Source of the DNA: a virus
Lineage: Duplodnaviria > Caudoviricetes
Length of the DNA: 64,000 nt
Direction: 5' to 3' (one strand)
Virus record (IMG/VR): IMGVR_UViG_3300020576_006344
Span: 30,646 to 94,645 of that record
The notes under the pieces were generated by a model. That model was not told the origin of the DNA. It saw nothing but the letters and a program-made list of their open reading frames with translations, and ran no database searches. Both the position numbers and the translations under genes were made by a program. This document shows, one piece after another, positions 512 through 53,581 of the stretch (its first letter is position 1; the number at the start of each line of letters is the position of its first letter).

Positions 512-3345
512 CGGCGTACATGCAATCTGGTGACCCCGGCGCGCTCGTCCCGGTCGTGGGCGCTGTCCATTATGATGTTGCGGTCGCGGATGGCCTCTAT
601 CACATGATCGGCCCCCTCTTTCACTTCATCAAGGTGTGTGATGATGACCACGTTCTGGTACTTGCCCTTCAAGTACTCAAGCATGGTCATGATGTTCTCG
701 CGTAGCTCATTGCCGAGCGTGCCGAAGCCTTCATCGATCATCATGATGGATGGCTGCACGATGGAGCGCTTGCTGACGTAGTTCAAAGCATCCTTGATGG
801 CGATCGATGCGATGAACTGCTGGGAGCCGGACCCGCTGTTGAGCGGAAGCGCATCCCACTTGCTCTCGGTGTTGTAGAACAACTCCGTGATGTTGCCTTT
901 CATGTCGATGGAGAACTCCATTTTGAATCCGACGATGGTCTGCAAGATGGAGTTGATCTTGTTGTTGAGCATCGGAAGCCGCTTCTTGATCACCATGGCT
1001 GGTATCCCGCTGCGCTCCACGGCTTGCAGGTAGATGGAGTACAGCTTGTACATCTTGTCCCCGGTCTTCACCTCATTGAGCTTCTTGACCTTATCATCCA
1101 TTGCATTGCCCAATAGGCGGACATCAGCGGCAAGGCTCATCAATTGGGTCTGTTGTCCATGCATGGACAGCTTGTAGGTCTTGATCAGTGCTTGCAGGGT
1201 TTCTATCTCCGCCTCCAGCAGCTTGTTGTTCGCCTTGGCTTGAACAACACTGTCGTACTTGGCGATCTTCTCATCCAACTTGACAAGTTCACGCTGGCCG
1301 AGTTCATGCGATATTTTCCACATCTTGACTTCCTGACGCTTGCGCTCGATGATGCGGTTCAATTCGATGAACTCCTTGTTCTTCTTGAAGTTCTCCATCT
1401 CCAACTTGATGGACTCGATGATCTTGCTGCGCGACTCCAAGGACACCTTCAGGGCATCCAGTTGGACCTGCTTGGTGTCGAAGCTGCGGTTCCACTCTTT
1501 GACCGTGTTGAACGATTCGATGGATTGGCGATAGCGCGTGATCGCATTGTTGCCCTCGGTGATCAAGGCGTCCATGTCGGAAACGCCCTTGGGGTCCGGT
1601 TTGCTGATGGCCTGCTTGCACGTGGGGCAATCCTTGCCGAGGAAAGTCTGGCGTTTGTTCTGATAGTCCCGAAGATTCCGGTTCAACTCGTCTATGCGCG
1701 CCTGCGTAGCGGTGACATCAATGTTGGGCAGTTCCTTCTTGGGGTTGTCCTCCAACCACTTCTTGTTCGTGAGGTACTTCTGCTTGTCGGTCGCGAACAC
1801 AGAGCGGACCTCAGCGAGTTCGGCCTCCAATATCTCAGTGGTCCTCTTGGGGTCAACCTCAAGTTCGCGCAGGACGTTCTTGTCGAGCCACTCATCATGG
1901 AGGTCAATGGCCGACTTGAGCGTCGTCTGGGAGGTGAGCTTCGTGGCGTGGTCGGCGATGATGGCGTCCTTGCTGTCGTACCCGAGGTCCTCCACTTTAT
2001 GGAGACTCCGCGTGAGTTCCAGCACCTTGCTCTGTGCATCCTCCTGCTTTTGTGTCCACATCCGACGCTCCTCCTCAAGGGTCGACACCATCTTCTCCTT
2101 GTCCTCTATCTGTAACTTGAGGCTCTTGATGTCCAACTCTATGTCGACCGACTCACCGAGCAGCTTCTGCTTTGTGCGAAGCTCATTGTATGGCTTCTTC
2201 ACATATTCATGACGATCACGATAGGTGTGTAGATTTAGGTAGCGCGCAATGAGGTCATTCTTCTCCTGCTGCTCCAAGTTGAGGTATCCGTCCTTCTCGT
2301 TCTGGGCGTGCAGGCTGACCTTCATGAAGTCATCGTATGTTCCGAGCGCATCGGCTATCATGTTCTTCACCTCCGTGTTATCGGCGGTGGAGTTGTCAGA
2401 CATGGTGTTGCACCACCTGTACTCCATGGCGCCATCGGGGCCCATGGCCTCGCGGAAGACCTCGAATTTGGTCGGATAGCTGTTGCTGGACTTTCCCTTG
2501 TGTACCTCCCGCGTGCTTCGGTATCGGATGCCGTCTATGTCGTAGGTGTTGCGGACATAGCCTTTGTCGGATTTTGTGTAGATGTTGATCAAGTACTTCG
2601 CGTGCGCACCACCGATGATGTACTGGAACATGCCCCACACCACCGCCTTGATCAGGTTGGACTTGCCGCAATAGTTCTCGCCGAATATACCGGTGAGGCC
2701 ACGCATGTGGTCCCAGTTGATGGTGGTGGGCTCCACAGGGAAGGAGAACACGTTGCTGACCTCCGTGGTCAACAGGGTATACCTCCTGTTCTCCTTGTGC
2801 GTCTGCTTGATGTCGATCTCCCGTTCCAGCTTGAGGGCGAACTCGATGATCTCCCGGCGCTCATCCTCATCGACGTCGAAGTCGTTCTCGTCGAGGAACA
2901 TGTTGAACATGCGCTCGATGTCATTGGGATCGATCTCGTCTTGATCGACCTCCTCGGGATTGAGCGTCTGCTTGTCCAGTTCACGGAACTCCACGTGGAT
3001 GCTCTCGCACCCATGTTTGTCCTTGACCAACTGCTTGATCTGATTGAGGCGTTCGATCGAATAGCTCTCCTCGAAGTCCTCGTACACGATGTGGACCTTG
3101 GTCTTCCGCTTGTTGTGGCTGAACTGCAAGTGCGATAGGCGCTCCTCGATGTTCTCCCCGCGTGAGATGGTCATCTTGCACCACCCATAGTCGTTGGGGA
3201 TCAGTCGGCGCTCGTTCGACACCTCCTGACCATCGATGTGCCACAGCAGGTAGCCCTTGTCAAGGGATTCTCCATACCCCTGCTGCAAAAGTGATCCTGA
3301 ATAACCGGCAGACGGTATTTTTTTTCTGAGCTTAACGGTTGCCAT
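508..3345 (-). CDS. sbcC: Rad50/SbcC (gp46-like) ATPase carrying the C-terminal part of the Mre11/SbcD nuclease at its N-terminus
   Basis: Walker A GENYCGKS, coiled coil with Zn-hook CPTC, signature SGSGSQ, Walker B MMIDEGFGTL, H-loop IITH. N-terminal GYSGSLLQQGYGESLDKGYLLW is the SbcD-type terminal phosphoesterase motif. Confidence 0.93.
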   Translation of the reverse strand: MATVKLRKKIPSAGYSGSLLQQGYGESLDKGYLLWHIDGQEVSNERRLIPNDYGWCKMTISRGENIEERLSHLQFSHNKRKTKVHIVYEDFEESYSIERLNQIKQLVKDKHGCESIHVEFRELDKQTLNPEEVDQDEIDPNDIERMFNMFLDENDFDVDEDERREIIEFALKLEREIDIKQTHKENRRYTLLTTEVSNVFSFPVEPTTINWDHMRGLTGIFGENYCGKSNLIKAVVWGMFQYIIGGAHAKYLINIYTKSDKGYVRNTYDIDGIRYRSTREVHKGKSSNSYPTKFEVFREAMGPDGAMEYRWCNTMSDNSTADNTEVKNMIADALGTYDDFMKVSLHAQNEKDGYLNLEQQEKNDLIARYLNLHTYRDRHEYVKKPYNELRTKQKLLGESVDIELDIKSLKLQIEDKEKMVSTLEEERRMWTQKQEDAQSKVLELTRSLHKVEDLGYDSKDAIIADHATKLTSQTTLKSAIDLHDEWLDKNVLRELEVDPKRTTEILEAELAEVRSVFATDKQKYLTNKKWLEDNPKKELPNIDVTATQARIDELNRNLRDYQNKRQTFLGKDCPTCKQAISKPDPKGVSDMDALITEGNNAITRYRQSIESFNTVKEWNRSFDTKQVQLDALKVSLESRSKIIESIKLEMENFKKNKEFIELNRIIERKRQEVKMWKISHELGQRELVKLDEKIAKYDSVVQAKANNKLLEAEIETLQALIKTYKLSMHGQQTQLMSLAADVRLLGNAMDDKVKKLNEVKTGDKMYKLYSIYLQAVERSGIPAMVIKKRLPMLNNKINSILQTIVGFKMEFSIDMKGNITELFYNTESKWDALPLNSGSGSQQFIASIAIKDALNYVSKRSIVQPSIMMIDEGFGTLGNELRENIMTMLEYLKGKYQNVVIITHLDEVKEGADHVIEAIRDRNIIMDSAHDRDERAGVTRLHVRR

Positions 3346-3348
3346 GAT

Positions 3349-4086
3349 TCAGACAGCCACTCTGGCCGTTACGGGTTCCCATCCTTCTTGGATGTATTGC
3401 TGTACGTCCTCCTCATCCACTTCGATGAAGTGATCGCGCTCGAATGTCTGGTGCTCATGGATGTCGCCCATGAGGACAGCGTCGAATCCGGCGAACGTCG
3501 ATAGCTTCACAAGTTCATCGCCGGAGGCATCGTAGCCGTTGTCCATCTTGCAGCCGTAGAGCATGCCATGCCACAAGGCCACATAGGTCTTGCCGGGCTC
3601 CTTGTTCTCCAACTTCAGCAACTTGTTGTCCTTACAGGAGAACACCCCATACACCAGTTTGTCGCTGATGTCGAAGAAACCCGTGTTGGGGAAGTAGTAG
3701 ATGGCCCTGCGGCTGAAGTCGATTAGGGATTTGTTCTCATCGGTGACCACTACGGCCTTGTCCTCCCTTCCAAGGCGACGCGCTATCTCGAATATGGGCG
3801 ATAGCGCGTCGCCTTGCTCCAGTTGCTTGAGGTTCAGGTCATGATTGCCAAGAATGACATCCGTGGGCGCTATCTCAGCGAGTTCGAACATGAACTTGGA
3901 TACCAAGTCAATGGAGGATGGCGACAGCTTCACCTTGTCATGGAAGATGTCGCCCGCCAGTACAATGCGATCGGGTCGGCGCTCAGCGAGGTCTTTGAGT
4001 GTTCTGGTGAACACCGTCTGGAACTCATCGTGCCTCTTACCGTACCGTACCTGAATGTCAGCTATGTGGGCTATGGAGACGCTCAT
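3349..4086 (-). CDS. sbcD: Mre11/SbcD (gp47-like) metallophosphoesterase nuclease, N-terminal part
   Basis: Motifs HIADIQ, GDIFH, GNHD, WHG, GDIHEHQ. Start moved to ATG 4086 (MSVSIAH), just downstream of a TACGTTTG element. Confidence 0.92.
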   Translation of the reverse strand: MSVSIAHIADIQVRYGKRHDEFQTVFTRTLKDLAERRPDRIVLAGDIFHDKVKLSPSSIDLVSKFMFELAEIAPTDVILGNHDLNLKQLEQGDALSPIFEIARRLGREDKAVVVTDENKSLIDFSRRAIYYFPNTGFFDISDKLVYGVFSCKDNKLLKLENKEPGKTYVALWHGMLYGCKMDNGYDASGDELVKLSTFAGFDAVLMGDIHEHQTFERDHFIEVDEEDVQQYIQEGWEPVTARVAV

Positions 4087-5868: not shown

Positions 5869-6491
5869 TACCTGACGGTGTTAATGTTGTTGACGTTACC
5901 GCTCGTGTTGGTGTTGTTGGGGTTGTTTGGCCCGAACGTCACATTGCCATTGTTCATCTCAACAATGTTGCTGTTGTTATTGCTGTTGTTGCCAACATTG
6001 GCACCACGATAGTTGAACCTTATTTCGAAGCTCACTGCATTGTTTGCCTGAGCGGTATCTGAGCCGTAACCGGTAAAGCTCAATTTGCGATAGCGGATAA
6101 CACCGGAGGTCGATGGCGCTCTACCGTTGTCGATCCACTTCTTCATGGCCGTCACGTATGCCGCTGGCACGCGCTGCATATAGTCTTTATACCCATCGTC
6201 ATAGGTGTTGTTCTTGGTGCAGAACGTCACATACATGGTCTTGTTGACCAACGCATTGTTGCTAGAAGTGTTGGGGTAGTGCAGCTTGATGAAGAACGAA
6301 CCTTCTCCGGTCTCCGTAGTCAATGGAATGACGGCCTTGTCTCCCGTCCTGAGGCGTGTGATGCGTATTCCCTGAGCGTAGGGACCGAAAACTTGGAATG
6401 GCTCATTTATCACGTTGCCATTCGTGCTGTTCACAGTGGCGAAGATGATACGCCTGTTCAATATGGTCGATGGTGCGGGATTCGTTGCCAT
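5868..6491 (-). CDS. Hypothetical virion protein with Asn-rich tail
   Basis: 207 aa ORF, coupled by TAATG overlaps on both sides. Confidence 0.7.
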   Translation of the reverse strand: MATNPAPSTILNRRIIFATVNSTNGNVINEPFQVFGPYAQGIRITRLRTGDKAVIPLTTETGEGSFFIKLHYPNTSSNNALVNKTMYVTFCTKNNTYDDGYKDYMQRVPAAYVTAMKKWIDNGRAPSTSGVIRYRKLSFTGYGSDTAQANNAVSFEIRFNYRGANVGNNSNNNSNIVEMNNGNVTFGPNNPNNTNTSGNVNNINTVR

Positions 6492-7018
6492 TATCTTACT
6501 GGATCAATGTTGGTGACATTGCCACCTGTGTTATTGTTGCCGTTGTTCAGAACGGAAACCACGTTGCCACCGGGGTCTAGGGTCACCAGCGGACGGTTAT
6601 TTCCTCCACCGCCGCCTCCGCCGCCTGTGTTGCCATCCACGCCAACCGGTATGTCTCCATCGTTAAGATTGACGTTCACGTTGAGGATGTTCCCGTTCGC
6701 GTCAGTTGTATAATCGATGTTGTTGCCTACGACTTGATCGAAGTTCTCGAAGAACAGAAGATTCCTCTGTTCGTAGTCCAAGGCTGTCTTCAAACAACTG
6801 TCGTACGTTCCGCTCAGGTCCGGTACTCCTCCTTCCGGAAGGACCTCCGAGGTGAGATAGTTCACATCCGGGTCGCCCAGAGTGAAGGTCTTGATCTCGA
6901 AAAGGTCTTGACCCAAGTTGTTGAATCGTATGTTCCCGTTGTTGAACAGGTACTCCCTGCCTCTACCGGTAAGATAGGCTCTCGCGTATATTGTCGATGC
7001 TGAAGCTAGGTAACCCAT
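6491..7018 (-). CDS. Virion protein with the N-terminal half of a tail-collar-fibre-like domain
   Basis: N-terminal AYLTGRGREYL...IKTFTLGDPD; Gly/Asn-rich tail; TATTTA motif upstream. Confidence 0.7.
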   Translation of the reverse strand: MGYLASASTIYARAYLTGRGREYLFNNGNIRFNNLGQDLFEIKTFTLGDPDVNYLTSEVLPEGGVPDLSGTYDSCLKTALDYEQRNLLFFENFDQVVGNNIDYTTDANGNILNVNVNLNDGDIPVGVDGNTGGGGGGGGNNRPLVTLDPGGNVVSVLNNGNNNTGGNVTNIDPVR

Positions 7019-30300: not shown

Positions 30301-31265
30301 CTCTTGTCCTTGTTGTAGAAATCCTTCTTCTTTTCCTTGTAGAGGTTGCGCAGTTTGGTGAGGCTCTTGCTCATATCCTCTTTGGAGAGTTTGGACCTGT
30401 CTGCGATGAAGTCCAAGATGTTCCCTTTGCTGTATCGATTGTCGTCAATGCTGGCGTCGAACCTCTGAGCACCAGATATGGCGTGCTTCGCGCTGTTGGT
30501 CTTTCTCAACTCTTCCAGTTCATCGGAGGTCAACTTCTGGTCACCATGGCCCTTGAACAGAACGAGAATGGAATCTAGGACCTTCTTGTCGTTGTCGTTC
30601 AACGCCTTGTTGTTCATGTTCTTCTCAAAGGCGATCACCATGTGATTGAACAGGTCCATCATCTCATCGGACTCGGCCGTATCACCTAGCTCGTAGTTCT
30701 CGCGTTCATCCACCTCCTCCATGTGGTCATCGTAGTTCAAGTTGATGGACTTGAGCATATCAAGGTCCTTCTTCTTGTTCTGCAAATAGTGTTTGGCGAT
30801 GGTGCCGAAATACGAGAACGACTTCGTGTTCTGGTCTGGGTCGAACTTGTAGAACTTCTCGTATACATGAGACATGCAATCGTTGTGCAGTGTCTTCACG
30901 TCTATGTCGTAGCGGAACAGCTTGAAGCTGAATATGATGTTCTCTATCAATCGGTTCAGCGGGGTACGTATCTTCTTCCTGAAGATAAGCTCCTTCTTGT
31001 GCTGGGTCCTGTCCGAGCGGCTCTTCCGGATCTTGGATTCCAATTCGGCGACGTGGCCATCTTCAATAGAAGAGTCATACTTGTCAGACTCCCTCAGGGT
31101 CTTCAAATAGTTCGCCAGCTTGCTGCTGAGATGATCGAAGTCCATGGAAAGATACTCTTTGACGGCCGCTTCCGTCTCATCGTTCCAGTATATCTTCTGT
31201 TTCTTCTCTAGCTCAACTGTAAGTGCGAGTGTATTACCGGTTCTTATCTCAATTTGCAGGCTCAT
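30297..31265 (-). CDS. Phage RNA polymerase sigma-factor-like protein (candidate gp55-type late sigma)
   Basis: Region-2-like LNRLIENII...LHNDC...KFYKFDPDQNTKSFSYFGTIAKHYL; C-terminal HTH-like segment. Confidence 0.68.
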   Translation of the reverse strand: MSLQIEIRTGNTLALTVELEKKQKIYWNDETEAAVKEYLSMDFDHLSSKLANYLKTLRESDKYDSSIEDGHVAELESKIRKSRSDRTQHKKELIFRKKIRTPLNRLIENIIFSFKLFRYDIDVKTLHNDCMSHVYEKFYKFDPDQNTKSFSYFGTIAKHYLQNKKKDLDMLKSINLNYDDHMEEVDERENYELGDTAESDEMMDLFNHMVIAFEKNMNNKALNDNDKKVLDSILVLFKGHGDQKLTSDELEELRKTNSAKHAISGAQRFDASIDDNRYSKGNILDFIADRSKLSKEDMSKSLTKLRNLYKEKKKDFYNKDKS

Positions 31266-49498: not shown

Positions 49499-51358
49499 TC
49501 ACTTCTTGTAGCACTTCATGAGCGCGATGAGAATGTCGCTGCGTACGATGTCATCCTCTGTGAATTCGAAGAAGTCCACGCCGGGCACTCCTTTGAACCG
49601 CGTGAAGGCATCACTGAGACCATGCTGATCATTGCCTCGCAACATAAGGTCAGACTGGTCGCTGTCACCGATAATGATCATCTTGGAACCTTGTCCTATG
49701 CGGGACAGGAACAGCTTCATAGCTATCATGGTGGTGTTCTGGGCTTCATCCAGAATGGATATGGACCTGCGGAACGTGTTGCCCCTTATGTAGGGCAGGG
49801 GCACCGACTCGATGATCCCGTTGGCGATGAAGTCACGTGTGGCCACCTTGCCGATCAACTCCTGTATGTTGTCGATGAACGACTTCATGTAGGGGTCCGT
49901 CTTTTCCTCTATCCCACCGGGCAGGAATCCGATGGACTCGCCCGCCTCAACGATGGGCTTGGTGAGCATGATCTTGTTGATGCCAGCGGTATTGTCCTTG
50001 AGCACCTCCAGTGCCGCCTTGAGCGCCATGAACGTGTTGTGTGTCACAATGAAATCCCTAGTCAGATAAAGCGATGAAGGATGGTCAACCATTATACATT
50101 GAGCCTCCTTTTCGCCAATCAACGTTACGTTCGATATGAACTTTCTGTAATAGTGCTTCTTTGCGTGATAACGAGAAGACTTTCGCGAGAGCTTGAACGG
50201 TTTTATTTCATCACTGTAAAAGTTGATGGTTACGATGTATGACGACTCTCCTTCCACAACATCGCCATTCTTGTTTCTGTATTTTGGAACCTTAGTTGTA
50301 GTGCAGGCAATACCTCCGAGTGATCGCACTAAAGTGCTTATTCCATTGGCCAATTTGATTGATGTGGACGAGAAAGAAGAGACACCGTTCTTGTCACATG
50401 TTCCATCAGAATCCATCAATCCTTGCAACAATAACTGCCTGTTATACACGTTATTGTACAGATAATCATCCGGAATAAACTTGTCCTTTGAGCCACATCC
50501 GTTCAATCCATATTCGACTATTGCATTGCGTATGTAGTTTCTACCGTGCGCACCACTTTTCTTTCCTGTTGACAATGCGTAGTCGCAGCCTTCTTTATGC
50601 TTAAGACTAACACCAGAATGAAGAGTGGACTGTACTGATTCTAGGATTTCGTCATCAATTGTCGACAGCGTCACTCCTCCGTATTTGATACAACCATCAC
50701 CTAAAAGAATACCCATGGTGTATGGGTCAATTGGTACATTACGCTTACTGAATTCAACTGGATCGCAAAGAGGAATAGAGTGATTCAATCGACCATCATG
50801 CCCATATAAAGTCCGCATGATATCCGTGGTGCTTTTAACCGTAGCTGGTCTTGGACTCGGGTAGGCAATGCCGTTCTTCTTCTTTCTTGCGCTTCTGTCC
50901 AGTTCTGTTTGAGTTGACCACAAATGTTCAGCACAGCATTCAGTGTGTGTTCCGTCAGAAAAGTCAACACGGTATATCGGCTTGACTCCCTGAGGAAATA
51001 CGCCGATGATCTTCGTGGCCGTACCATCTACAGATATTACTTCATCACCCACATTGAGAGACCCCATTGGCACAAAGCCTTGTGGAGTGAGAATCGGCTC
51101 CTCAAGAGGTTGAGCCTTGCCCGTACCCGCTGCGCCTTTTACGAACACTATCTGGTTCGCGTGTATGGACTTCACGAGATCCTTCTGTTTGGAGTTCTTG
51201 TACTTGATCTCCTTGTTGATGGAGATGCGGTTGATGATGTCAGCTTTGAAGTCGTCCTCCTTCTGTTCGGCTGATCTGACGATGTTATCAAGTTGCTCAT
51301 CCTCAAACTGCTGCTTGACTGACCGCTTTTCCTTCGCTCGGCTTCTATGTTTCGACAT
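49499..51358 (-). CDS. phoH: PhoH-family ATPase interrupted by an intein
   Basis: GAAGTGK|T P-loop, TKPIVEAGESIGFLPG, YIRGNTF, LDEAQN, GDSDQSD, IVRS. Confidence 0.95.
   Translation of the reverse strand: MSKHRSRAKEKRSVKQQFEDEQLDNIVRSAEQKEDDFKADIINRISINKEIKYKNSKQKDLVKSIHANQIVFVKGAAGTGKAQPLEEPILTPQGFVPMGSLNVGDEVISVDGTATKIIGVFPQGVKPIYRVDFSDGTHTECCAEHLWSTQTELDRSARKKKNGIAYPSPRPATVKSTTDIMRTLYGHDGRLNHSIPLCDPVEFSKRNVPIDPYTMGILLGDGCIKYGGVTLSTIDDEILESVQSTLHSGVSLKHKEGCDYALSTGKKSGAHGRNYIRNAIVEYGLNGCGSKDKFIPDDYLYNNVYNRQLLLQGLMDSDGTCDKNGVSSFSSTSIKLANGISTLVRSLGGIACTTTKVPKYRNKNGDVVEGESSYIVTINFYSDEIKPFKLSRKSSRYHAKKHYYRKFISNVTLIGEKEAQCIMVDHPSSLYLTRDFIVTHNTFMALKAALEVLKDNTAGINKIMLTKPIVEAGESIGFLPGGIEEKTDPYMKSFIDNIQELIGKVATRDFIANGIIESVPLPYIRGNTFRRSISILDEAQNTTMIAMKLFLSRIGQGSKMIIIGDSDQSDLMLRGNDQHGLSDAFTRFKGVPGVDFFEFTEDDIVRSDILIALMKCYKK
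50036..51115 (-). mobile_element. 360-aa class 3 intein with LAGLIDADG endonuclease in the PhoH P-loop
   Basis: Starts AQPL (Ala1); block B EHLW; block F AQCI; ends VTHN/T; endonuclease motifs GILLGDG and LQGLMDSDG. Confidence 0.9.
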
Positions 51359-51378
51359 TCGATGATCCCTGTTGCATC

Positions 51379-51415
51379 TAAATATGGGATACTCCATGAC
51401 AAAACGGTCTATTTA
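51379..51415. promoter_or_regulatory. Divergent pair of TATTTA putative late promoters
   Basis: TAAATA 51379-51384 and TATTTA 51410-51415. Confidence 0.65.
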
Positions 51416-52750: not shown

Positions 52751-52782
52751 ATCGGGCCCTGAAAAGGGCCCGATTTGTTTTG
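52751..52782 (+). terminator. Intrinsic terminator
   Basis: ATCGGGCCCT-GAAA-AGGGCCCGAT followed by TTGTTTTG. Confidence 0.8.
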
Positions 52783-52810
52783 TGGTGGGTCCGGGTTTAT
52801 GTTTTCTGTG

Positions 52811-53581
52811 ATGCGACGTACGCAAGCACAGATACGCGGGGAAGAATTACTGTACCGTGTCCACGAGGTGGACGGGAGGTGGTGTGGAACTCGCCTATGT
52901 AAATCATGTCGCACTGAGGTAAATCAGACCGCGAAGGAGAAGTGCGTCCTCATTAGAAACATGAGGAGCACCTTGCAGTGCAAGCACTGTAGTCGAAAAG
53001 GTAAGAACAACGGATTCTTTGGGAAGAAGCACTCCACTACGTCCAAGGCAAAGGTGTCCAAAAACCGCATAGGTAAAGGCGTGGGTGAGAATAATTCCAT
53101 GGCCAAGGCGGAACACCGCGCTAAGGTGTCATCGCAACTGAAGAAGAAGTATGCCAGCGGCGACCTCGACTTCCTGAGAGAGATACAGCGTAAGAACGCG
53201 ACAGCGAATCAGGCTAACGGGAAACTGGCCACTGCGCCAGTGTCCAAGGAAGAGAAGCAGCTTAAGGCGGCGCTGGAGGCGCACGGACTGGTGGTGGAAT
53301 CGCAGTTCCGCATTGGGTCGCTCAAGTACGACCTCATGATACCCGACCGCAAAGTGATAGTGGAGTTCCATGACGACTACTGGCATTGCAATCCAAAGCA
53401 GTACGCGCCGGACTATGTTAACAAAAAGAAGTTACTGTATGCACATGAGATATGGGCACACGACGCACGCAAGAAGTCGGCTGCCGAGTCGGCAGGCTAC
53501 AGGGTCATCTGCGTGTGGGACTCAGAGTACAAGAAGAACAAGAACTACATAACAGAACTGATCGATGCAATCAAAGATTAA
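52811..53581 (+). mobile_element. Free-standing putative homing endonuclease (Zn finger + NUMOD3 + Vsr/DUF559-like nuclease)
   Basis: CKSC...CKHC, NGFFGKKHSTTSKAKVS, YDL...VEFHDDYWHCNP...HDARK...GYRVICVWDSE. Confidence 0.8.

Follow-up and report, generated by a model that had tools for sequence, protein, structure and literature searches.

A phage Mre11-Rad50 fusion gene interrupted inside its nuclease domain probably encodes two polypeptides with oppositely charged ends

The viral record IMGVR_UViG_3300020576_006344 (IMG/VR; Duplodnaviria, Caudoviricetes) carries a gene for a fused Mre11-Rad50 protein in which a single TGA codon falls inside the nuclease domain, and this raises the question of whether the locus encodes one protein, two proteins, or a gene in decay. 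The stretch analyzed here, hereafter the window, comprises 64,000 nucleotides (nt) of that record (positions 30,646 to 94,645), and window coordinates refer to this stretch. We consider it very probable that the gene is a fractured gene, or gene in pieces, whose two open reading frames (ORFs) give two polypeptides, here called the N-piece and the C-piece. A first-pass annotation made from the sequence alone had described two ORFs in the same frame, parted by TGA-ATC-ATG, and had placed the break within the nuclease domain instead of at the usual SbcD/SbcC boundary. The ORFs and their translations confirm both observations, with nuclease motif V on the N-piece and the YSGSLLQQGYGE strand on the C-piece. 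With the TGA parting the two ORFs, the gene as read is not a single-chain Mre11/Rad50.

The N-piece belongs to the calcineurin-like phosphoesterases and is of the SbcD/Mre11 type (Pfam Metallophos, 3.9e-12; phrog_100, SbcD-like, 5.6e-13), and a profile search of the PDB retrieved Mre11 from Thermotoga maritima (5.6e-10) and Pyrococcus furiosus (7e-9). The C-piece is SbcC/Rad50-like (phrog_77, 8.7e-45); its Pfam matches to SMC_N and SbcC_Walker_B both lie under the curated cut-offs, and the Rad50/SbcC hallmarks (Walker A, signature, Walker B/D-loop and CPTC hook) are all at their expected places. Four of the five phosphoesterase motifs on the N-piece (II to V) are canonical, while motif I reads D-I-Q, a metal-ligand His being replaced by Gln. 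This Gln is found clade-wide, in 30 of 39 split N-pieces and in 22 of 47 in a mixed alignment, independently of the split, and the His is retained by more distant relatives. Megablast found no match to the locus in the phage collection.

The distance from GDIH to GS is 57 codons in the window, as opposed to 16-24 residues in relatives that lack the insertion, and the break falls about 35 residues inside this insertion, which lies past motif V and ahead of the YxGS strand. The N-piece ends in an acidic tail of about 32 residues (net charge -7, pI 4.1) and the C-piece begins with a basic head of about 14 residues (net charge +4, pI 11.3), so the computed charges agree with the acidic and basic ends described in the first-pass annotation. 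The locus thus consists of adjacent, same-strand, separately startable ORFs that are divided at a conserved site and are both under selection, and they carry extra, oppositely charged tails without counterpart in intact homologues. In annotation pipelines the 245-amino-acid (aa) ORF will be mistaken for a truncated phosphoesterase, and the 945-aa ORF will pass for a plain SbcC. The features of the locus are collected in Table 1.

Table 1. Features of the divided Mre11-Rad50 gene, in window coordinates.
Feature	Coordinates	Strand	Remarks
N-piece gene, 245 aa + TGA	3349..4086	-	From ORF list and translation; Mre11/SbcD phosphoesterase motifs I-V and acidic tail
C-piece gene, 945 aa	508..3345	-	Basic head, end of nuclease, capping domain, linker helices, Rad50/SbcC ATPase with coiled coil and zinc hook
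Motif I, ADIQ	4062-4051	-	N-piece
Motif II, GDIFHD	3954-3937	-	N-piece
Motif III, GNHD	3849-3838	-	N-piece
Motif IV, WHG	3573-3565	-	N-piece
Motif V, GDIHEHQ	3448..3468	-	Precedes the inserted module as the final canonical nuclease motif; aligns with GhiH of T. maritima Mre11
Acidic C-terminal tail, TFERDHFIEVDEEDVQQYIQEGWEPVTARVAV, residues 214-245	3352..3447	-	Forms the first strand of the module and its helix, then the loop stub
Junction: TGA 3351-3349, ATC spacer 3348-3346, ATG 3345-3343	3343..3351	-	In frame
Basic N-terminal head, MATVKLRKKIPSAG	3304..3345	-	Second strand of the inserted module
YSGSLLQQGYGE strand	3268..3303	-	Conserved; follows motif V throughout the Mre11/SbcD relatives, on the C-piece in the window
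Walker A, GENYCGKS	2682-2659	-	C-piece
Zinc hook, CPTC	1629-1618	-	C-piece
Signature, SGSGSQ	837-820	-	C-piece
Walker B/D-loop, MMIDEGFG	744-721	-	C-piece

To judge the reality of the stop and the state of both pieces, the gene was compared with that of an independent IMG/VR contig (L003), which is 97% identical, differing at 105 of 3579 positions with no indels. Its junction reads GTA TGA ACC ATG; the TGA is kept and the spacer codon is ACC, against ATC in the window. Over the whole gene, 89 codon differences are synonymous and 12 are non-synonymous, divided into 23 and 4 in the core of the N-piece, 6 and 0 in the tail, 0 and 0 in the head, and 60 and 8 in the rest of the C-piece. In addition, identical N-pieces form a cluster of 6 member sequences. 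The presence of the TGA in an independent contig, together with changes that are mostly synonymous, rules out a sequencing error, a possibility that the first-pass annotation had raised, as well as a decaying pseudogene, and the 6 to 0 ratio of differences in the tail indicates that the tail is under selection as a protein.

Judged by their sequences, relatives of the gene show the site in three states: the insertion, hereafter the module, is absent (most relatives), is present as a contiguous strand-helix-loop-strand element of about 36 aa, or is split in its loop (dozens of lineages). Most relatives are single chains of about 1030-1250 aa, and P0001, P0045-P0129 and most IMG/VR loci carry both domains on one polypeptide. 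Microcystis phage Mel-JY01, for instance, encodes an uninterrupted Mre11-Rad50 fusion of 1066 aa with just 18 residues from GDIH to GS, and about 75 of the 80 IMG/VR loci retrieved with an N-piece profile are uninterrupted with 16-24 residues at the site. A search limited to proteins of similar length returned 40 homologues that are split N-pieces (222-280 aa, 98-34% identity), all ending shortly after the same tail motif; this motif, E.E[VI]DE.ELE.Y...GWE, is conserved in 39 split N-pieces, and the head pattern M..[VI][KR][LI][RK][KR]K..P is conserved in split relatives. The contiguous module was found in a search among longer proteins, in close relatives of about 1190 aa (P0045-P0054, 62-78% identity) and in P0083, where GDIH and GS are 53-55 residues apart; the contiguous relatives with the same module are proteins of 1184-1213 aa. 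A protein of a distant clade (P0348, 1099 aa) has a contiguous insertion of 51 residues at the same site with a different sequence. To count these states, 1.84 billion representatives were searched exhaustively with a profile, which gave 5875 matches; of the best 150 of the resulting 50%-identity clusters, which were classified, about 19 carry the split with tails, the module is contiguous in 3, and the others lack it. A further protein, P0058, lies inside the window's clade and has just 25 residues from GDIH to GS (FEREHENSQKFHS...), which is possibly a partly deleted module.

The first-pass annotation had offered two mechanisms for the junction, namely a small inserted beta-alpha-beta module that is split and zips the nuclease back together non-covalently, or readthrough of the TGA to give a fusion of about 1190 aa. 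According to the second, programmed or leaky readthrough would make a single chain of about 1192 aa the functional product, and the downstream ATG would be irrelevant. The in-frame ORFs with one codon between stop and ATG are as this would require, natural contiguous relatives with the same module are codon-for-codon collinear with the window, and the translated-through sequence folds confidently in the structural model described below. However, in the alignment of homologues the split position, the acidic tail, the basic head and the start are conserved while the frame offset varies, which is the outcome that had been named for the split module. Over 12 split lineages the offset is 0 in four (the window, L084, L017 and L089), 1 in two and 2 in six, and by these counts the in-frame arrangement of the window is no more than chance would give. 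L084 has tandem stops (TAA TAG ATG), L004 has a TGATG overlap, the start overlaps the upstream stop in L068, L071 and L088, and an ATG, GTG or TTG followed by a basic head is kept in every split form. Moreover, the window and L003 have different spacer codons, while their genomes are otherwise under strong constraint. TGA is also the commonest stop in the window, ending 30 of the 43 long ORFs (12 end in TAA and 1 in TAG), and no tRNA or suppressor gene was found in the window or in the whole 94.6-kb contig. A conserved frame and stop, or a stop that is non-routine or served by a suppressor, would be expected of programmed readthrough or recoding, and the sequences have neither. Since the offsets are random, double stops occur, the TGA is an ordinary stop and no tRNA is present, the general solution among these genes appears to be two polypeptides rather than readthrough, which we regard as improbable for the working mechanism of the window gene. 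The phage's genes are tightly packed and generally lack a Shine-Dalgarno sequence, so reinitiation 3 nt past a stop would be unremarkable; the C-piece would be translated from its own ATG 3 nt past the TGA, most likely by coupling of termination to reinitiation.

A recent inactivating nonsense mutation, leaving a decaying pseudogene or only one working piece, would account for the uninterrupted close homologues, the existence of which the first-pass annotation had named as speaking against its own reading. Yet both pieces are under strong purifying selection in the comparison with L003, dozens of diverged lineages have the split with a conserved start, and the catalytic motifs are intact on the N-piece (motif I with Gln), as are the Rad50 motifs on the C-piece, making such decay very improbable. 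Least probable of all, to the point that we give it almost no weight, is a sequencing or assembly error or a translational bypass of the T4 gene 60 type. A lone in-frame stop could in principle be a miscall, and bypass cassettes are described as accompanying endonuclease-split phage genes, but the same stop with different flanking bases is found in the independent assembly, identical N-pieces recur in a cluster with 6 members, the inserted residues are conserved as protein and not skipped, and no matching in-frame pair of take-off and landing codons was seen on inspection around the junction. Two other candidates were discarded. The insert is about 105 nt long and conserved at the protein level, excluding an intron, and an alternative genetic code does not agree with the TGA that terminates 30 of the 43 long ORFs.

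The inserted module was modeled with AlphaFold2 (AF2), using residues 1-437 of the window's readthrough translation, at a predicted local distance difference test (pLDDT) score of 88.8. Foldseek matched this model to SbcD/Mre11 nuclease and capping domains from Escherichia coli, Staphylococcus aureus, T. maritima and P. furiosus with E values of about 1e-13, among them E. coli SbcD 7yzo_A (1.8e-13) and 3qg5_D (2.9e-13). In the model the insertion forms a strand (213-224), a helix (225-233), a loop and a second strand (250-262), and the loop block 241-250, which contains the break at 246, falls to a pLDDT of about 61. When the N-piece was folded alone the helix was kept and strand 213-224 was lost, the pLDDT of residues 211-220 dropping from 95 to 60. 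We infer from these models that the module is a hairpin extension between motif V and the YxGS strand, with the helix near its tip and the break in the tip loop, and that the tail strand needs the head strand in order to fold. The tail and the head would then be two halves of one small strand-helix-loop-strand module, broken in its flexible tip loop, and the two chains would reassemble non-covalently by pairing of the tail strand with the head strand, with the acidic and basic halves probably helping to hold the pieces together. The beta-sandwich of the nuclease core would thereby be completed across both chains. The split beta-alpha-beta module of the first-pass annotation is thus borne out in that it exists in contiguous form in close relatives, is modeled as strand-helix-strand, and has no intein motifs, while the rejoining of the chains stands as a prediction. 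If so, the break marks a site in the Mre11 nuclease fold where continuity of the backbone is dispensable in nature, which would be useful for split-protein engineering and also bears on thinking about Mre11-Rad50 assembly.

What the first-pass annotation had missed is a link to homing endonucleases, which becomes visible in the gap between the pieces of some relatives, and a published precedent that is discussed below. In L085 and L087 the gap holds ORFs of 289 aa and 295 aa, respectively, with DUF7487 and Vsr/PvuRts1I-like domains and matches to "homing endonuclease" PHROGs; these two ORFs are 42% identical to each other (3e-66), and the N-pieces of their hosts are just 40% identical. The huge phage LR756508 (L002) has the same split, with similar tail and head, and its gap contains a 305-aa ORF with a zinc ribbon and a TnsA-like endonuclease domain. 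L017, a relative of L085 without the endonuclease, has a gap of 69 nt that corresponds to the last codons of an L085-type endonuclease gene, with the 12 nt before the ATG identical, and by this sequence match the gap is a direct deletion remnant of the endonuclease gene. Other gaps hold other genes: a ClpP protease gene in L086 (4200-4823; Pfam CLP_protease, 2.4e-22), a 313-aa ORF in L065 (5659-6600) for which searches of Pfam and PHROG gave no match, and a 77-aa ORF in L089. Scanning IMG/VR with an alignment of the L085 and L087 endonucleases gave just distant relatives in unrelated contexts and no further loci with an endonuclease inside an Mre11 gene. On an N-domain tree of 113 rows the split state requires at least 14 changes, at least 8 of which are forced by well-supported branches, and the three states together require 34 changes on an N-domain tree of 195 rows. 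Backbones that are nearly identical can differ in state: L084 (split) and L006 (no module), with flanking DNA about 85% identical, are told apart by a clean indel of 108 nt, within which lie the stops and the ATG. From these relatives we suggest that a free-standing cassette with a Vsr-like homing endonuclease, still present in some lineages, either introduced the fracture with its tails or spread it, and that the endonuclease gene would later have been lost in the lineage of the window. Taken with its relatives, the locus completes a series of intact gene, endonuclease-bearing split, remnant, bare split and re-fused module, in which the window represents a clean, endonuclease-free end state.

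Elsewhere in the window, a free-standing 268-aa ORF (52775-53581, + strand) has a NUMOD3 motif and a PD-(D/E)XK domain like those of Vsr, DUF559 and MTES_1575. It shares a D..WH.NP region with the L085 gap endonuclease (BLASTP, 1e-7), represents the same broad type of homing endonuclease, and lies just upstream of a glycosyltransferase gene.

The window's own clade bears on the direction of change. Among its 28 rows, 17 are split, 10 are contiguous and 1 is module-less, and these states are interleaved; the sisters of the window are the contiguous P0045 and P0046 and the split P0006. The junction is collinear codon for codon with the contiguous form, V-*-I-M-A-T in the window corresponding to A-Q-T-G-T-T in P0045 (contig L101), and a Met is already present at the head position in the contiguous P0046, P0047 and P0054. 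This collinearity and the interleaving imply that split and contiguous forms interconvert by point substitutions, and the TGA of the window is in frame because its junction is collinear with the contiguous form. Beyond the clade a split module is almost the rule and endonucleases often accompany it, which favors a "healing" of a fracture that an endonuclease had made. We tentatively propose, with confidence somewhat short of even, that tails delivered or spread by an endonuclease cassette became, in this clade, a permanent element, a 36-aa hairpin-plus-helix that toggles between split and healed through single point substitutions, with absent, split and healed alleles co-circulating in phages that are close relatives. 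If this is true, the scar of a selfish element is being made into a new structural part of a protein, and nature itself has validated the hairpin tip as a place where the Mre11 fold can be broken neutrally. One contig of the data set, P0007, ends 61 nt past its N-piece, and the sequence that follows the N-piece there is not a C-piece head. On L101, the contig of P0045, an IS605 OrfB/TnpB (Cas12f-like) gene is found at 6154-6573, about 1 kb downstream of the Mre11-Rad50 gene.

A different origin for the same two-chain mechanism would be a nonsense mutation upstream of the loop Met in a contiguous 36-aa insertion, with an endonuclease never having been present in the lineage, and we rate this as possible, though less likely. 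The collinearity with the contiguous sister, the Met that pre-exists at the head position in three contiguous relatives, the interleaving of split and contiguous forms, and a gap in the window that holds no endonuclease remnant would all follow from it. Set against this are the rarity of the contiguous form (3 of the best 150 clusters), the almost uniform splitting of the module beyond the clade, frequently alongside endonuclease genes or what is left of them, and the split state of the outgroups within the clade, P0016-P0018. Recombination among phages also shuffles alleles, so that either direction of change may apply. Several points weigh against parts of the reading given here, in which an endonuclease-made fracture gives two chains that reassemble. 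The collinear junction may reflect a nonsense mutation and an ATG in a contiguous ancestor with no endonuclease in this lineage, and the window's gap of 3 nt has neither an endonuclease gene nor a recognizable remnant of one. Conservation of the tail roughly follows that of the flanks and exceeds it for the most divergent pairs only, so that horizontal spread of the module is at most suggested by it. The predicted association of the chains rests on DSSP assignments and on pLDDT values of single-chain AF2 models. Finally, minor readthrough at UGA-A may occur in the window, though no observation calls for it, and its product would resemble the natural relatives of about 1190 aa.

The arrangement itself is already published, and the window is an endonuclease-free example of a fractured SbcD-like gene. 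Dassa et al. 2009 (Nucleic Acids Res 37:2560; PMC2677866) described an SbcD-like gene from Lake Gatun in the Global Ocean Sampling data that is fractured by a Vsr-like ORF, with no intein. At that locus 25 residues are added to the C terminus of the upstream ORF and 9 to the N terminus of the downstream ORF, whose start is overlapped by the 3' end of the endonuclease. There as in the window, an SbcD/Mre11-like gene is cut into adjacent same-strand ORFs between consecutive motifs, with extra residues at the break; this likeness of the split sites is at the level of motifs, taken from the published description. The arrangement is reproduced by the relatives L085 and L087, whereas the window differs in having no endonuclease in the gap, a 3-nt spacer, and pieces that are in frame. 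The 2009 report covers a single locus and mentions neither a contiguous module nor endonuclease-free descendants. The Vsr-like family, as exemplified by I-Bth0305I in Taylor et al. 2011 (PMC3239194), contains active homing endonucleases. The contiguous form of the clasp-like module and its toggling by point mutation in the window's clade are not explicit in the literature cited here.

The principle that charged tails rescue endonuclease-split phage enzymes has likewise been published since 2009-2010. Crona et al. 2010 (Nucleic Acids Res 39:1381; PMC3045599) found that oppositely charged tails created by mobE are essential in the split NrdA of Aeromonas phage Aeh1, and predicted such tails in other fractured genes. 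NrdA-a and NrdA-b resemble the window's pieces in that an essential phage enzyme is broken at a conserved position, each polypeptide is translated on its own, and the charged tails are short and absent from intact homologues. The enzyme is a different one, however, and the polarity is reversed, the upstream tail being basic and the downstream tail acidic in Aeh1. The Aeh1 tails promote dimerization of heterodimers, not the primary association of the pieces, and their role was demonstrated biochemically, whereas in the window it is predicted. Unlike those of Aeh1, moreover, the window's tails are halves of one module that also exists unbroken.

Single-chain fusions of Mre11 and Rad50 in viruses and plasmids, abundant in aquatic viral metagenomes, were described by Yoshida, Claverie, Ogata 2011 (Virol J 8:427; PMC3175470), with an N-terminal Mre11-like nuclease followed by a C-terminal Rad50-like ATPase, as in most relatives of the window. 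In contrast to these, the window gene is re-split inside the nuclease domain and not at the Mre11/Rad50 boundary. Genes fractured by split inteins (Dassa et al. 2009) share the layout of N-fragment, free-standing endonuclease and C-fragment, and charge complementarity of fragment ends has been proposed for them too. A split intein was nevertheless rejected for the window: the 32 + 14 = 46 extra residues are far too few for an intein, which has about 100 or more in total, block A/B and F/G motifs are absent, the tail does not start with Cys or Ser after the extein, and no His-Asn followed by Cys, Ser or Thr precedes the YSGS strand. With no intein blocks, no protein splicing is expected and the chains should stay separate. 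In the topoisomerase genes of T4 (gp39/gp60), a mobA homing cassette is described as splitting a phage gene, with oppositely charged, tail-like extensions; T4 gene 60 also has a 50-nt ribosomal bypass, of which there is no indication in the window.

Two further features of the window lie outside the Mre11-Rad50 locus. Several starts (for example at 7018, 9072, 12540, 21709, 25200, 51430 and 58844) are preceded, at a distance of about 10-20 nt, by a recurring TATTTA motif, a possible phage promoter element. An ORF of 632 aa (49499-51397, - strand) combines an N-terminal P-loop region, which matches terminase-large-subunit, DnaC-like and primase PHROGs, with a C-terminal PhoH-like domain (2e-57), an unusual fusion.

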